Positions 48,794-61,325 of a stretch of DNA of 64,000 bases are shown piece by piece (positions within the stretch are counted from its first letter, which is position 1; each line of letters starts with the position of its first letter). The notes under the pieces are model-generated. The model saw nothing but the letters and a program-made list of their open reading frames with translations, searched no databases and was not told where the DNA came from. The translations under genes and the position numbers were made by a program. The DNA is taken from the NCBI GenBank assembly GCA_048939765.1, contig JBHLPF010000015.1:13457-77456 (forward strand), read 5' to 3'. Source of the DNA: Promethearchaeota archaeon. GTDB taxonomy: Archaea; Asgardarchaeota; Thorarchaeia; Thorarchaeales; Thorarchaeaceae.

Positions 48794-50839
48794 ATGAGTT
48801 CAAAGAAGAAGAAATCCAACCAGGCGAGGAAGAAATCAGCCCCTCGTAAGCAGTCGGCCTCGGATCCAGTCGCGACAGGAGCAGGGGATATTCGCCAAGG
48901 TACAATTGCCAAGTTCATGCGGAAAAGAACTCAGCTAGTGGGCTTTGAAACTGGCTTAAACAAACATACCCAATTTGCCATCGAGTTCCTAGATAATGCG
49001 ATTGACGCAGTGGAGAGCTGGTGGTGGAAGGCCAGCCGACACCCACGGCTAGATGACCAATTGGATCCAAAATATATCGAGGAAATCCGTACAAAGCTTG
49101 ATGGAACTCTTCATGATTCAATTGCTCTAAGCAAGCAGCTAGAGAAGGATGTGAGGGAAGGCAAGGAAGTCGAGATCCCCCCTCGGAGAAGGGAAACTCT
49201 GCAGGACCGCCTTACAACCTTCAGGAAGTTTCTGATTCCTTTCAGGGGATTGATTAGCAGACGAGAGCCCTTCTGCGTCATTCAACTCACTGAGGTTCAG
49301 ATGCCTGACCTTGTCCCGCTTGACGATGAAGAGGGATTCAAGGTCTACGAGTTCGCATGCTTCGATAATGGAGTGGGCATGGTTCCGGCCGATTTGGAGA
49401 AGTATGGCATATATCTCGCCTCAAGCAAATCTGAGAAGCTAAGGCAGACTCGAGGGAGTCAGGGATTCGGCGCTCCATCTGCCTTTAGCGATGCCCAGAA
49501 TACAACTGGGAAGCCCATCTTCACAATTTCAAAGCGTTTCAATGTAGCAGAGGCTACAGTTACAGACTTCTACACGACAACTGCAAACACAAAGGAGTAC
49601 GTAAGCGGACCAATCAACATGGAACTACCTTTTGAGCATGGGACCTATATCAAACTCAACTATCTGAATATCCAATATCGGCGTGGATATGCTGATACCT
49701 ACGTTGAGATGGCATCGCTGCTCAACTCTCATGTGACACTCGTCTTCATTGACCCCTATGGGGACGTCCGTATTTATCCGAGAAGGGTGAAGGAATTTCC
49801 TGATGAGCCAAAGTACGCACAGCCTCATCCAGCAAGCATTCGTATCGGTGAGTTCCAGGACCTACTCCGTGAATCCCCAGAGCCAGATTTGCGAAGCTTC
49901 CTGACAAAAGCCTTTGTGAGGTTGAGTGGAAACAAGGCAAAGACCATCATCGGCAATGCAAACAAAGAGTTGCGGAAGCGGCATCAGGATACACTAAGCG
50001 CTAAAACACCCACCGATTCCCTGTCAAAGATGGAAATAGAACTGCTCTACAAGTCATTCTCCGGAGAGGACTACATTGCACCACCAACTGATACAGTAGT
50101 CCCAGTTGGAGAAGAGGTCTTTGAGCAGACCATACACATGGCTTATGAGCCAGATTTCGCTACAGCAGTTACAAGAAAGCCTACTTCTGGGAAAGGCCTA
50201 TCTTTTGCGGTAGAGGTGTGTATTGCCTATGGAGGGAGTATCAGACCAGCAACTTCTGCCCCAATGGTCCTGTGGCGGTTTGTGAACCGTGTTCCAAAGC
50301 TCAGAGACAACAGTGACTGTGCAACTTGGAAGGCAACAGCATCGGTGAATTGGAAGAACTACAAGGTCCAGACCTTTGACAATGGCATTCCGCGAGGGCC
50401 CATTATGGTGTTTATCCATGTGGCAGGAGCATACGTTCACGTGATGTTCAAGGGGCAGAGTAAGCAAGCGCTTGCAGAGGATGAAGTGCTGCTACGTGAG
50501 ATTAAGTTGGCCCTCGAAGATGCAGGTAGAAGATTCAGACGCTTCATTACAAGACGAGAAACGGCAAAGCGAAAGGCGAAGCGTGCGGGCATTCTTGCCA
50601 TGTATGCGGATCAATTCTCACAGAGTCTCGCTGCAATCGCAAATGACGGAAAGAAGAAACCAGTGTTCGATGCAGAAATTGTGGCGAGAAAGATACGTGA
50701 CTCCATCACAGGAATTGAAACCACCGATGACCAAGAGGAAACAGAAACCGATGCGCGAGGTACCGACCTCATTGCTGATGTCCCTCTTGGAGATGGAGAT
50801 GACGATATACTTGAAGTTTCAGCGGAGGGCGGTGATTAA
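48794..50839 (+). CDS. top6B: DNA topoisomerase VI subunit B with large insertion
   Basis: GHKL motifs EFLDNAIDA, DNGVG, QTRGSQGFG; RFVNRVP; FKGQSKQA. Confidence 0.92.
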   Translation: MSSKKKKSNQARKKSAPRKQSASDPVATGAGDIRQGTIAKFMRKRTQLVGFETGLNKHTQFAIEFLDNAIDAVESWWWKASRHPRLDDQLDPKYIEEIRTKLDGTLHDSIALSKQLEKDVREGKEVEIPPRRRETLQDRLTTFRKFLIPFRGLISRREPFCVIQLTEVQMPDLVPLDDEEGFKVYEFACFDNGVGMVPADLEKYGIYLASSKSEKLRQTRGSQGFGAPSAFSDAQNTTGKPIFTISKRFNVAEATVTDFYTTTANTKEYVSGPINMELPFEHGTYIKLNYLNIQYRRGYADTYVEMASLLNSHVTLVFIDPYGDVRIYPRRVKEFPDEPKYAQPHPASIRIGEFQDLLRESPEPDLRSFLTKAFVRLSGNKAKTIIGNANKELRKRHQDTLSAKTPTDSLSKMEIELLYKSFSGEDYIAPPTDTVVPVGEEVFEQTIHMAYEPDFATAVTRKPTSGKGLSFAVEVCIAYGGSIRPATSAPMVLWRFVNRVPKLRDNSDCATWKATASVNWKNYKVQTFDNGIPRGPIMVFIHVAGAYVHVMFKGQSKQALAEDEVLLREIKLALEDAGRRFRRFITRRETAKRKAKRAGILAMYADQFSQSLAAIANDGKKKPVFDAEIVARKIRDSITGIETTDDQEETETDARGTDLIADVPLGDGDDDILEVSAEGGD

Positions 50840-53001
50840 TGGCCCGAAAGAAGAAATCAGAGCAAACTGAAACAGTTCAAGAAACTCTGGGAGATTTTGT
50901 CGAGCCCAAGAAGAAGCCAGCGAAGAAGTCTTCAAAGAAACCCACCACGAAGGAATCCACAAAGAAGTCTGCCAAAGAAGCCGTCAAACCCCAGGCGAAG
51001 AAAACCGCCGCTAAGAAGAAACCGGCTAAGAAGCCCGCTGAAAAGCCTGCAGAGAAGTCAGCTCCTGAAACTGTAGATACGGATACAGGACCATCACTGA
51101 AGGTACTGCCCGGTGTTGGCCAGAAGCTTGAAGAGAAACTTATCGTTGCCAATTATGATACCGTAGACAAGATTTCGCGGGCTCGGTCTACAACCATGGC
51201 GAAGAAGGTAGATGGACTCAGTCTTCCAGGTGCCAAGAAGCTTATCGCTGCCGCAAAGGAAGTAGTCAAGGGTGGGCCACCTCCTGCTCCTGATTTGGAG
51301 CCTCCAACTGATGCTGGAGAAACTGATGCTGAAGATATTGATGCAAGCCCTGAGGCAAGAATCAAATTGACAGATCTGCCTGGCGTCGGGGAGAAGCTCG
51401 CCAAGGAATTGGAGCGGTCTGGCTACAACACAGTCGCAAGATTATCGCGCTCCAGGCCAAGCTCTGTGGCCAAGGTGGTTGATGGTCTCAGCCTAAAGAA
51501 AGCGACCATTTTGGTGGATGCGTCAATAGAGCTTGTTCGTGAGGCCGAGATGATGGCCATATCCGAAACGATTGCTCCAAAGCCTAAGCCCAAGGAGGAA
51601 GCTGAGCCTAAGGAAACAACGCCCGAAAAAGAGCCTGAGCCTAAGAAAGCCCCAACGCCCAAGAAGGAGAAACCTCCAGAGAAGCCTTCTATAAAGCCCG
51701 ACACGCCAATGAAGTCCAAGAAGCCGAAGAAGTTGGTCCAGGAGCCAGCTGTTGAAGCACCCAGGAAGAGTACGGCAAAGAAGAAGAAGTCCGGTCTTCC
51801 TGTCCCTGAAGCGGTTAAGTCTCTTGAAAAGGAGATGAAGAGGAAGTGGAAGGCAGCAGCCAAACGAAAGGCTGCGATTGAAGCAGGAGAGCTTCCCGAG
51901 GAAGAGATTGCACCTCTCAAGGAAACAGTAGAAGTCATAGGTTTAACTTCTGACCAAACCCAGAATGAGCTCGTAGAGGTAGCGATGGAAGTTCTTAATG
52001 AAGCAATGATGACTGGACGACCTGAGTTTGAGATTCCCAGCCGATCAGGTGACAATATTGTCTGGGATGAGATAAGAGACCTGCTACTACTTGGTATGAA
52101 GACAGTCGCCCGGCCTTACCATTCTCTAGCCTCCGTGGTTGATGCCACGCGTACTGCTAGAGTCATGGAAATAGTCTACGATCTCCTGAAGTCGAATTTG
52201 CATGCAACCAAACGAGAGGTATTCTATAGTGATGTCAACCTATTCAGAGAACAAAAGCGAAGTGACAAGATTATTGAAGATGTTGCTTCAATGATACACA
52301 CGACTCGAGACAGTATACATGTGGTGGCCTCTGCTAGAGGTTCCGCGATGGGCAGAGTTGTAATACGTGACAGCGGCGACACTATTGACCTGACTAGGAT
52401 GGGGACAGGTGGTTGGGCTATCACTCCTTTCTTGGACCAAGTCGAGATTCTGGAAAGCGATGCTGAGTTCATCCTCCTCTCTGAGAAAGACGCAGCAGTT
52501 ATGCGACTGGCAGAGGCGAAATATTGGAATAGGCAGCCTTGCATTGTCTTGACGGGAAAAGGTTCAGGTGACATTGCGACTCGTGCCTTCCTCCGAATGC
52601 TTGTGAAAGAGCTAGAGATACCCGCATTCGCCTTGGTGGACTCAGATCCTTATGGTCATTACATATACTCTGTCTTTCTGCGAGGTAGCAAGCGACTCAG
52701 CTATGAGTCCCCCTTCATTGCTACTCCTGAGTTGAAGCTTCTAGGGGTCTTGAGCCGTGATCTTGAGGAATATAACATTCCAAAATCAGTTCGGATACCA
52801 ATGGAGCCGACAGACATCAAGCGTGTGAGAGACATGCTCAACGAACCTTTCGTGCAGGCCAACAAGGCATGGGTGAAGGATCTAAAGTTGATGTTGAAGC
52901 TCAAGGAGAAGGCAGAGATTCAGGCATTCGCAAGCCATAGCTTTGAATACCTCACTGATGACTATCTACCTCGCAAGCTTGAAACCGGCGATTGGATTTA
53001 A
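50839..53001 (+). CDS. top6A: DNA topoisomerase VI subunit A (Spo11 family) with long N-terminal extension containing two HhH domains
   Basis: TKREVFY (catalytic Tyr), SEKDA, TGKG, DSDPYG, KAEIQA; TAATG coupling to top6B. Confidence 0.93.
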   Translation: MARKKKSEQTETVQETLGDFVEPKKKPAKKSSKKPTTKESTKKSAKEAVKPQAKKTAAKKKPAKKPAEKPAEKSAPETVDTDTGPSLKVLPGVGQKLEEKLIVANYDTVDKISRARSTTMAKKVDGLSLPGAKKLIAAAKEVVKGGPPPAPDLEPPTDAGETDAEDIDASPEARIKLTDLPGVGEKLAKELERSGYNTVARLSRSRPSSVAKVVDGLSLKKATILVDASIELVREAEMMAISETIAPKPKPKEEAEPKETTPEKEPEPKKAPTPKKEKPPEKPSIKPDTPMKSKKPKKLVQEPAVEAPRKSTAKKKKSGLPVPEAVKSLEKEMKRKWKAAAKRKAAIEAGELPEEEIAPLKETVEVIGLTSDQTQNELVEVAMEVLNEAMMTGRPEFEIPSRSGDNIVWDEIRDLLLLGMKTVARPYHSLASVVDATRTARVMEIVYDLLKSNLHATKREVFYSDVNLFREQKRSDKIIEDVASMIHTTRDSIHVVASARGSAMGRVVIRDSGDTIDLTRMGTGGWAITPFLDQVEILESDAEFILLSEKDAAVMRLAEAKYWNRQPCIVLTGKGSGDIATRAFLRMLVKELEIPAFALVDSDPYGHYIYSVFLRGSKRLSYESPFIATPELKLLGVLSRDLEEYNIPKSVRIPMEPTDIKRVRDMLNEPFVQANKAWVKDLKLMLKLKEKAEIQAFASHSFEYLTDDYLPRKLETGDWI

Positions 53002-54009: not shown

Positions 54010-55242
54010 CTAGGCTTTTCTGATCTTCTTGTCTAGGCTCTTGAGCTTCTTGTCGTCCTCGCCTTCTCTATATCTTTGCGCAGCTTCTTGATACTTGGTG
54101 AGTGCCTTTCGTGTCTGGCCAGCCTTTGCTAATGCATCTCCTTCGTCTTCAAGGACTTTCCCCCATTCGACATAGCAGTCACGAACCTTTTCCGAACACT
54201 TCGCCCTTTTCTTGGCATCTGTTGAAAACATGTATAATTCTCTGGCCTTTCGGAATTGAACAATCGCCCATTCGTACTCGTTTGCCTTTCTGTGATTCTC
54301 AGCCTGTTCAAAGTGATCGTTGGCCATTGCGTCATAGCCCTCGTCTATCATCTTGGTGGCATCAGCAATAGATTTCTCATTGGCAGCTCTCTCAAAGAGC
54401 TTCTTAGCCATCTCAAATGTTTCAATTGCCGGTTCGAATTGTTTGGCTTCCAGTTTCCCAAATCCGTCTTCCATTCTTGCCTTACCCATCGCCTCATAGA
54501 CATAGCCAGGGTATTCGAAACCATCACCAGATATGGAGAAGCCGCAGTTGGGGCAGTCTGGTGTATCAAGCTCAGGCATTGGCGTCGTTACTGCAATCCT
54601 CTTGGGTGTTCCAACAACCGTGTCAATGAAGTCCTTTGAGGTTACACCCCTCCCGCCAGGGAACAGGTGAGTCACCGCATCTCTCGTGGGGTCATCCTTG
54701 CCTTCTGGAAACAGATGGTCAAAGACCTCTACTGGATGGACTTCTATCTCTTCAGCCATTACTCGAGGTGGCGCAACTTCTTTGAACGGCATCCCTACCT
54801 TTATCTCAGGATCCACGCCCTCAACTTCCCAACTTAAATCCGAGCTGCTTCCTGCAGGTGCTTCAGGTGGGCTCACAGGAATTGGTTCAGGTGCAGCCAC
54901 TTCTTCAGTGGTTGATTCAACAAGCCTCTCATCAACCTCCCATGACAGACCTTCTTCGGGCGATGTAGGTGTCGCTGAAGGTGGTTCTTCTTCTATTACA
55001 GGTTCATCAACATCCGGGAGCTCAGTATCCGGTAAGATTTCTAGCTCTGCGGGAGGTTCGCCGAGGTCTGGAACATCATCGAGTTCAGAAGCCTCTGGTA
55101 GAACATCCTCACTAGCTTCTGAGGTCGTAGGTACATGTCCATTTGGTAATCTGTTCCCACAACCCATGCAGAAGGTGGAGCCCCTACGACTGCGTTTTCC
55201 ACATTCCGGACATTCGACACTTCCTTCCATGATTCTACCCAC
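54010..55242 (-). CDS. Zinc-ribbon, acidic disordered linker and TPR/alpha-SNAP-like helical repeat protein
   Basis: CPECG...FCMGCG; E/P-rich linker; CPNCG; helical repeats AIETFEMAKKLF, AIVQFRKARELY, ALTKYQEAAQRY. Confidence 0.7.
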   Translation of the reverse strand: MGRIMEGSVECPECGKRSRRGSTFCMGCGNRLPNGHVPTTSEASEDVLPEASELDDVPDLGEPPAELEILPDTELPDVDEPVIEEEPPSATPTSPEEGLSWEVDERLVESTTEEVAAPEPIPVSPPEAPAGSSSDLSWEVEGVDPEIKVGMPFKEVAPPRVMAEEIEVHPVEVFDHLFPEGKDDPTRDAVTHLFPGGRGVTSKDFIDTVVGTPKRIAVTTPMPELDTPDCPNCGFSISGDGFEYPGYVYEAMGKARMEDGFGKLEAKQFEPAIETFEMAKKLFERAANEKSIADATKMIDEGYDAMANDHFEQAENHRKANEYEWAIVQFRKARELYMFSTDAKKRAKCSEKVRDCYVEWGKVLEDEGDALAKAGQTRKALTKYQEAAQRYREGEDDKKLKSLDKKIRKA

Positions 55243-60146: not shown

Positions 60147-60284
60147 CCTTTTGCACGTTTAATATCTCATCACTCGGCTGTCCAACTAGTGCCATTTTTA
60201 TATCTAGTAATGCGACTAGTGGATGACCATGTGCTTGGCATTGTATGCGCGGATGGACGCCAGGCATTGAGGGAGGTCCTCAGG

Positions 60285-61325
60285 ATGTCACCAAAGAAGG
60301 CAGATGAAGAAGAAACCGTAGATTATGAGGATTTCGAGGAAAGCGAAATCGATGAAGAATTTGTCGAGCTCGGCACCGAGGGAGAGTCAGGATTAGATGT
60401 AACTGATCTCCCAGGCGTAGGGCCAGCAATCGCAAAACGCCTGTCTGAGGCCGGCTACAGGAGTGTTGAGGCAATTGCAGTGGCATCTCCATCTGAGCTT
60501 GCGGCAGCAGGATCAATCGGTGAAACCACATCGACCAAGATCATAAAGGCAGCACGCGAAATGCTCGATATCGGCTTTGAAACAGCAGACCTTCTTCTTG
60601 AAAGGCGAAAGAGTGCGGGCCGAATAAGCACCGGCTCAAGCGCACTTGACGAACTCTTCGGCGGAGGACTTGAAACCCAAAGCATCACAGAGATGTATGG
60701 TTCATTCAGGTCCGGGAAGACACAGATGGCACATCAACTGTGTGTTATGGTTCAGAGATCCGAAAGCGATGGCGGATTGGATGCCACAGCCATCTATGTA
60801 GATACAGAGGGCACATTCAGACCTGAGCGTCTTGTAGACATGGCTGAAGCTTATGGCATGGATAAGAAGAAGGTCCTGAAGAATGTTGTTTGGGCTCGCG
60901 CCTACAACTCTGACCATCAAATCCTTCTATGCGACCAAGCGATGGAGATGGCGCCTGAGAAGAAAGCCAGGCTCCTGGTTGTTGACTCTGTTACAAGCCA
61001 TTTCAGAGCCGAGTACACAGGAAGAGGAACACTTGCCGCAAGGCAGCAGAAGCTGAACAAACATCTGCATCATCTTCAGAGAGGAGCTGAAATCAACAAT
61101 ATGGCAGTTTATATCACTAATCAAGTGATGTCGCGACCTGATGCCTTCTTCGGAGATCCAACTGCTCCTGTTGGAGGCCATGTGCTTGCTCATGTTCCCC
61201 AGACGCGGTGCTATCTAAGAAAGTCAAAGGGCGAAAGAAGAATCTGCAGACTTGTTGACTCCCCCAATCTTCCAGAGGGCGAAGCAGTCTTCACTGTCAC
61301 AAAGGATGGAATACGTGACGCATAG
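60285..61325 (+). CDS. radA: DNA repair and recombination protein RadA
   Basis: HhH NTD DLPGVG, GFETA, Walker [35 protein letters not shown]; ATG 60285 preceded by ggaggt. Confidence 0.97.

Follow-up and report, generated by a model that had tools for sequence, protein, structure and literature searches.

Topoisomerase VI of one archaeal family carries a long N-terminal arm on its A subunit (Top6A). The most likely role of this arm is to hold the enzyme on DNA, a link to RadA or to meiotic Spo11 being less likely. The representative gene, top6A, lies in a 64,000-nucleotide stretch of a Thorarchaeaceae genome (referred to as the window, to which all coordinates refer unless another contig or locus is named). 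The arm consists of a tip resembling the PCNA-interacting protein (PIP) box, basic disordered tracts, and two helix-hairpin-helix ((HhH)2) modules of the HHH_5 family, and is a real and new variation on a known enzyme, and no step towards meiotic Spo11. The features relevant to this analysis are as follows.

48794-50839, plus strand: top6B, 681 amino acids, GHKL and transducer domains, translationally coupled to top6A
50693-50836, plus strand: acidic C-terminal tail of Top6B, conserved across Thorarchaeaceae
50839-53001, plus strand: top6A, 720 amino acids, A subunit of the conserved Asgard-type topoisomerase VI, bearing the N-terminal arm
50878-50901, plus strand: PIP-box-like motif Q-x-T-L-x-x-F-V (residues 14-21), probable PCNA hook
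50902-51090, plus strand: Lys/Ala/Pro/Thr-rich disordered tract (residues 1-84 contain 24 Lys; net charge +13)
51091-51276, plus strand: (HhH)2 module 1 (HHH_5), residues 85-146, net charge +6
51277-51357, plus strand: acidic Pro-rich disordered linker, net charge -9
51358-51552, plus strand: (HhH)2 module 2 (HHH_5), residues 174-238, with invariant Arg201 and Arg204
51553-51786, plus strand: Pro/Lys/Glu-rich disordered linker, ratio of nonsynonymous to synonymous change (pN/pS) 0.35-0.55
51787-51882, plus strand: conserved motif and helix 324-348, by position probably the extra N-terminal TopoVIA helix
51934-53001, plus strand: catalytic core, winged-helix domain (WHD) with Tyr463 (52225) and Toprim domain with Glu549, Asp601, and Asp603
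60210-61325, plus strand: radA, ~7 kb downstream of top6A, outside the topoisomerase VI operon and used as a comparator

Catalytic core and arm of Top6A

The top6A gene is a single open reading frame, the ATG of which overlaps the stop codon of top6B by one base and is preceded by a Shine-Dalgarno-like stretch (GGAGG/GGTGA). A preliminary description of the window, made from the sequence alone, had called the protein about twice the usual size, and this holds because solved Top6As comprise only 369-389 amino acids. The Lys-rich tail and the intact core behind it, also proposed there, were both confirmed: Pfam detected TP6A_N at residues 437-495 (PF04406, E 1.5e-19) and the TOP6A-Spo11 Toprim domain at residues 544-714 (PF21180, E 6e-54), and the active-site residues Tyr463, Glu549, Asp601, and Asp603 were invariant among 59 orthologues. 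The best match in the PDB was Top6A from S. shibatae (2zbk_A; E 6e-59, 203 bits), while yeast Spo11 gave E 8e-7 and 32 bits only. The adjacent Top6B matched NF003218 above the cut-off and is of the canonical type. The protein belongs to the conserved Asgard-type topoisomerase VI, presumably the housekeeping copy, for which ATP-dependent relaxation and decatenation would be expected.

HHH_5 was found in two stretches of Top6A (38.8 bits against a curated cut-off of 27), and the repeats start at 51094 and 51361, as previously assigned. In AlphaFold2 models, residues 85-146 and 174-243 were predicted to form two independent five-helix (HhH)2 domains, with a predicted local distance difference test (pLDDT) score of ~88-97 per block, and the linker joining the modules and the other tracts of the arm were predicted to be disordered. 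The full-length model (mean pLDDT of 55, poor in the core) was uninformative on contacts between arm and core. Residues 317-365 include the conserved helix 324-348, which, judged by position, is probably the extra N-terminal helix described for Asgard and eukaryotic TopoVIA (Brinkmeier et al., 10.1101/2022.05.08.491100). Since this part looks Asgard/eukaryote-wide, the family-specific addition is ~315 amino acids; the long extension is thus present, but its length had been overestimated at ~370.

The net charge of the whole arm ranged from +23 to +67 across orthologues. The modules of Top6A were more basic than the copies on Rpo6, RadA, L32e, and S25e (see below), the mean charge per module being +4 to +5 in Top6A, -3 in Rpo6, and -2 in RadA, and Arg116, Arg201, and Arg204 were invariant. 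The disordered tails had been suggested to take the accessory role of plant RHL1/BIN4; a general Pfam scan of Top6A gave no match suggesting either protein, no direct comparison having been made.

In Top6B, the N-terminal tail is basic and the GHKL domain holds a long insertion (48794-49340), and the NCBIfam match begins only at residue 180. At the other end, many positions of the acidic tail were 80-100% conserved among 40 distinct tails, and the net charge of the last 50 residues was -8 to -17 in five family members. The genome also encodes a second, plain top6B-top6A pair of a divergent type (C35:35712-38271; locus L095:1213-3772; 505 and 349 amino acids), whose Top6A had a very long branch on the core tree; this agrees with the extra Top6 copies reported for Thorarchaeia (PMC12680538). 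Many relatives show a third, weaker Top6A-like match.

Distribution and selection

Among the 63 Thorarchaeaceae loci complete at the 5' end (51 of them distinct), all had the arm, in frame and stop-free, with two to five modules. In a phylum-wide sample, Top6A frames of the family were 658-954 amino acids long, apart from three cut by contig ends, and those of the 107 other Asgard genomes with a match were not longer than 483; a module profile gave no match on 45 N-termini of Top6As from outside the family. On the core tree, which was constructed without eukaryotic sequences, the arm-bearing Top6As formed one clade (99/100) with a 420-residue orthologue of the same order as the sister, and nested among the single conserved Asgard orthologues, apart from the divergent copies. 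The conserved Asgard Top6A therefore acquired the arm once, late, and at the level of this family. The Spo11 angle of the preliminary description is accordingly weak: the arm is not ancestral to Spo11, and has no direct bearing on the origin of Spo11 because it is confined to one family outside the Heimdall group.

Within genera, the pN/pS of module 2 (0.04-0.13) was close to that of the core (0.03-0.05); module 1 gave 0.13-0.24, the N-terminal motif 0.09-0.31, and the linkers 0.3-0.9. These ratios are rough, since most pairs are almost saturated at synonymous sites. Module 2 was 89-96% identical within a genus, and thus conserved almost like the catalytic core. The arm is under purifying selection, which makes a chimeric or untranslated arm very unlikely. 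An assembly chimera, or translation starting at Met333 to give a Top6A of the normal 388 residues, is therefore scarcely credible and was dropped. An internal start would indeed yield a standard-sized protein, but orthologues conserve the first Met, which is coupled to the stop codon of top6B, 24 of 59 orthologues have Leu or Ile instead of Met333, and the extension is present, in frame, at all 63 loci of close relatives. The proposed fusion thus survived both checks, an internal start as the source of the only product being unlikely given the selection on the arm.

One genus has a seven-module Top6A of 951-954 amino acids that keeps a Q-S-T-L tip (L236:370-3228 and L237:381-3230, both minus strand).

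PIP-like tip and PCNA

Residues 1-84 were poorly conserved except for Q-x-[TS]-L at positions 14-17, which all 51 distinct orthologues carried (against an expectation of 2% from shuffled sequences) and which was absent from the N-termini of L32e and RadA. The canonical PIP box, QxxhxxAA, has two aromatic positions (PMC4929162). At these positions, 7 and 8, Top6As carry two mostly aliphatic residues (Leu/Val/Ile), and among 59 orthologues Phe20 was present only in the window Top6A. The tip was in register with the PIP-like boxes of the Fen1-, PolB-, and DinB-like proteins (named from sequence) of the same genome. In the PolB-like protein (C60:68440-71244, minus strand), this box is at the N-terminus and not the C-terminus.

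A complex model of residues 1-40 of Top6A with the single PCNA of the genome scored 0.73, against 0.01 for the best control; the model mark is reached by 58 of 80 solved pairs and 2 of 110 mismatched pairs. Separate runs agreed in at least 70% of contacts, with a pLDDT of 55-56 for the partner. In the model, Gln14 contacts PCNA residues 245-247, and Leu17 enters a pocket formed by residues 40, 43-47, 227, and 243. Since PCNA-PIP complexes have already been solved, the score may reflect those structures and indicates likeness to them rather than binding. We consider binding of the tip to PCNA fairly likely.

A stretch Q-x-T-I-x-x-F-M close to the N-terminus of Top6B also fits the PIP pattern and was left uncounted, being placed at what we take to be the conserved N-strap.

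Module family and relationship to RadA

In the preliminary description, both repeats were aligned by eye with the N-terminal domain (NTD) of the RadA encoded in the same window. The fold match is real: the module shares its fold with the RadA/Rad51 NTD, NusA AR1/AR2, and a Pol theta/Hel308 helicase domain (Z 9-12), the RadA NTD being the top structural match (Z 11.9, root-mean-square deviation of 2.3 Å over 63 aligned residues), and the NCBIfam model for RadA matches the module stretch of Top6A (E 1e-9). NusA AR domains were tied within 2 Z units of RadA (Z ~10) and headed the Foldseek list; no Foldseek match of the tandem-module model reached an E value of 0.001 or better.

The closest match in sequence, however, was not RadA. 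In this genome, the same module is carried by L32e, by Rpo6, and, at its C-terminus, by a membrane protein (contigs C71, C55, and C86), and in relatives also at the C-terminus of S25e and on HEAT-repeat proteins, with zero to four copies on L32e. Module 1 was 51% identical to the L32e module of the same genome without gaps (50.8 bits), and only 32% identical to the RadA NTD with a gap (26.2 bits). Hairpins are spaced by 34 residues in the fused modules but by 33 in RadA, and all of the fused modules were split from RadA NTDs on the module tree by a branch with support of 95/88. These comparisons indicate that the Top6A modules belong to a promiscuous HHH_5 module of Thorarchaeia. The modules may still have a remote origin in RadA. 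One archaeal family has thus spread a small HhH module over a topoisomerase, the ribosome, RNA polymerase, and a membrane protein.

The module-bearing loci of the genome include L092:1598-2431, L093:1465-2154, and L094:1547-3217, all on the minus strand, and those of relatives L217-L232. The membrane protein is multi-pass, and the L32e and Rpo6 frames outside the family are mostly short.

If the modules were duplicates of the RadA NTD, they could couple cleavage by topoisomerase VI to RadA as a pre-meiotic link. In addition to the structural match, radA was within ~10 kb of top6A in 14 genomes of the family, as well as in the sister family, and an approximately unbiased (AU) test did not reject a clade of Top6A and RadA modules (p 0.365 on 63 columns). 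On the other hand, the differences in identity, spacing, and branching described above separate the two, and radA is 2 kb from a short, arm-less Top6A orthologue, so that this linkage is older than the late, family-level arm. The FxxA motif of the RadA filament was unconserved, being present in 5 of 45 arms, mostly inside module helices, and in 30 of 30 RadA proteins. A coupling of this type is very improbable, and the link to recombination machinery suggested previously was not supported, the modules being promiscuous (L32e, S25e, Rpo6, HEAT-repeat, and membrane proteins) and lacking a conserved FxxA.

A related candidate was also dropped: the Top6B tail of some orthologues contains G-F-E-T-A-D, the RadA polymerisation motif, but a BRC-like reading was abandoned because Ala was found in 6 of 40 tails; the window Top6B has Ile in place of Phe in the corresponding stretch. 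The window RadA has an acidic N-terminal tail ahead of the NTD, and a second RadA-like paralogue is encoded on contig C1.

The spread of the module also bears on the proposal that the arm is largely a decoration, such modules and Lys/Pro/Glu tracts being added to abundant proteins lineage-wide, for solubility, salt, or nucleoid partitioning, with no topoisomerase-specific job. Its presence on L32e, S25e, Rpo6, HEAT-repeat, and membrane proteins is in line with this, as is the joint rise of module numbers in Top6A and L32e (12 genera, Spearman 0.85); this co-variation was set aside since it comprised one supported independent pair on the tree. Against decoration, module 2 is conserved almost like the core, modules were lost from none of the complete Top6As of the family but from L32e in two genera, and the Q-x-T-L tip is specific to Top6A. 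We regard decoration as improbable. Exchange of modules between Top6A and L32e within a genome was also considered, and rejected as a mere hint in one genome.

Potential physiological role of the arm

We infer that the arm is a clamp hook and basic DNA tether on a housekeeping topoisomerase VI, an interpretation that we slightly favor. The A subunit of the family ancestor would have gained a flexible arm with the PIP-like tip, basic tracts, and tandem (HhH)2 modules. The tip would dock in the PCNA pocket and bring A2B2 to forks or to freshly replicated, catenated DNA, while the basic tracts and the Arg/Lys-enriched modules would grip the DNA backbone without sequence specificity, and the enzyme would therefore be kept near DNA between strand-passage cycles. 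Topoisomerase VI from M. mazei is distributive and slow, and a missing partner for processivity or localization has been proposed (PMC5922973); the tether may offset this distributive behavior. In topoisomerase V, tandem (HhH)2 domains seem to confer processivity (PMC9489208). Binding of nucleic acid by the arm is quite likely, and there is about an even chance that the arm increases processivity or residence. DNA tethering or processivity, as suggested in the preliminary description, thus stands as the best reading, albeit an inferential one.

Several points weigh against tethering. Since the module is also on ribosomal proteins and a membrane protein, its design is not one dedicated to DNA, and the same fold in NusA AR1/AR2 occurs in complexes with proteins. 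Of the two hairpins in each module, for which G-h-G would be expected in phosphate binding, the first is G-V-G, but the second is mostly G-L-S rather than G-x-G, which is found in some genera. Furthermore, the affinity of the tip for PCNA may be low because Leu, Val, or Ile replaces the aromatic residues at both PIP positions.

Instead of DNA, the modules may bind protein, in the manner of NusA AR1/AR2. They may latch onto the acidic Top6B tail, or bind another shared partner; a latch on the tail may be autoinhibitory or regulatory and freed by DNA or PCNA. The NusA match at the head of the Foldseek list, the presence of the module on unrelated hosts including a membrane protein, and the conserved acidic tail of Thorarchaeaceae Top6B, a possible partner of the basic arm, are in line with such a role. 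However, compared with the copies on Rpo6, RadA, L32e, and S25e, those on Top6A are more basic, and they are embedded in Lys-rich tracts; a genome of the same order with a short Top6A also has a mildly acidic Top6B tail. A protein-binding role is the chief alternative to tethering, but is considered unlikely.

Tethering by the arm also leads to a bolder and more doubtful proposal, namely that Thorarchaeaceae built the "missing" processivity and localization factor into topoisomerase VI, giving a PCNA-docked, (HhH)2-tethered enzyme that possibly travels with the replisome. As a natural fusion of a putative clamp hook and putative DNA-binding modules, the arm makes the idea of a processivity partner testable by simple deletions, so that both processivity and coupling to the clamp can be addressed directly in topoisomerase VI.

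Comparison with known enzymes

The archaeal Top6As of known structure (2zbk_A, 389 amino acids; 2q2e_A from M. mazei, 369 amino acids; and 1d3y_A from M. jannaschii) share the WHD/Toprim core, catalytic Tyr, acidic triad, and operon with top6B, but are too short for an arm; the window Top6A adds the ~315 residues with the PIP-like tip, basic tracts, and (HhH)2 modules. Conserved Asgard Top6A has been described as the sister of eukaryotic TOP6A/SPO11 (Feng et al. 2025, PMC12680538; Brinkmeier et al., 10.1101/2022.05.08.491100). The window Top6A groups with these proteins and has the probable extra N-terminal helix in common, whereas in other Asgard families the N-terminus of Top6A is short or bears a ubiquitin-like domain in place of the HhH arm. 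Compared with meiotic Spo11, it is far closer to S. shibatae Top6A, with a canonical-type Top6B adjacent.

Topoisomerase V from Methanopyrus kandleri (PMC9489208), which gave a weak Foldseek match, is likewise a topoisomerase with tandem (HhH)2 domains, 12 in number. It is a type IC enzyme with contiguous, C-terminal, DNA-wrapping domains including apurinic/apyrimidinic (AP)-lyase sites, whereas the window Top6A is of type IIB, and the two to seven domains of the family are N-terminal on long disordered linkers. The RadA/Rad51 NTD has the same five-helix (HhH)2 fold as the Top6A modules with 32-33% identity, but is one residue shorter between hairpins, is slightly acidic, and precedes the FxxA polymerisation motif. 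The add-on of haloarchaeal-type L32e (NF009401) and NusA AR1/AR2 resemble the present case in that HHH_5 is found on an unrelated host; the closest sequence relatives of the Top6A modules are the L32e modules of Thorarchaeia, from which the Top6A copies differ in being basic, with invariant arginines. A long folded N-terminus on Rpo6 of Thorarchaeota was reported in 2026, unlinked to the HHH_5 module family (PMC13257274).

The terminal Q-x-T-L on a disordered linker is common to archaeal PIP proteins (Fen1, PolB, RFC, NucS, NreA, and TIP; PMC4929162), from which Top6A differs by the mostly aliphatic residues at the aromatic positions. No PIP motif of topoisomerase VI is listed there, and topoisomerase VI co-purifies with NucS and PCNA in P. 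abyssi. Our literature search, in which subscription papers were thinly covered, turned up no publication on the arm or its motif, and no report of direct contact between PCNA and topoisomerase VI via a PIP motif; a term search of the main texts of PMC12680538 and 10.1101/2022.05.08.491100, with supplements outside it, found no mention of an HhH arm. As to whether this fusion was already widespread and described, it is family-wide, and many orthologues are automatically labeled "helix-hairpin-helix domain-containing protein" by NCBI, but the literature search yielded no published account.

Other modified topoisomerase VI subunits in Asgard archaea and neighboring genes

Six other Asgard families (including Heimdallarchaeum aukensis, Kariarchaeaceae, and Borrarchaeum) have an N-terminal ubiquitin-like domain of ~80 amino acids on Top6A (L240-L251 and L272-L274; for example, L241:1439-1753 and L248:1388-1702, both minus strand). 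This domain matched PF00240 above the cut-off (E 2e-7; L241), and its profile matched ubiquitin in the PDB. The ubiquitin-like Top6As formed one clade (100/99), and no paper on this domain was found in the literature search. The Top6B encoded beside them is giant: ~2,300 amino acids at the loci checked (L278:9686-16639 and L281:9938-16879, plus strand; L279:11938-18816, minus strand), and at least 1,489 at a cut locus (L277:2-4468, minus strand). The Thorarchaeia module profile gave no match on the repeats of these giant Heimdall-group Top6Bs.

In Wukongarchaeota, the N-terminal tail of two Top6As is rich in Lys and contains Q-K-K-L-x-x-[FY], a PIP-like motif, and that of Top6B is long and Lys/Ser-rich (L029:1243-2547, plus strand; L030; L280). 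Other Asgard lineages may have independently reached a similar result, by the Top6A tail in Wukongarchaeota and by the giant Top6B with a ubiquitin-like Top6A in the Heimdall group.

In the window itself, the gene at 54010-55242 (minus strand) encodes a protein in which a long acidic Pro-rich linker joins an N-terminal zinc ribbon to TPR repeats at the C-terminus.

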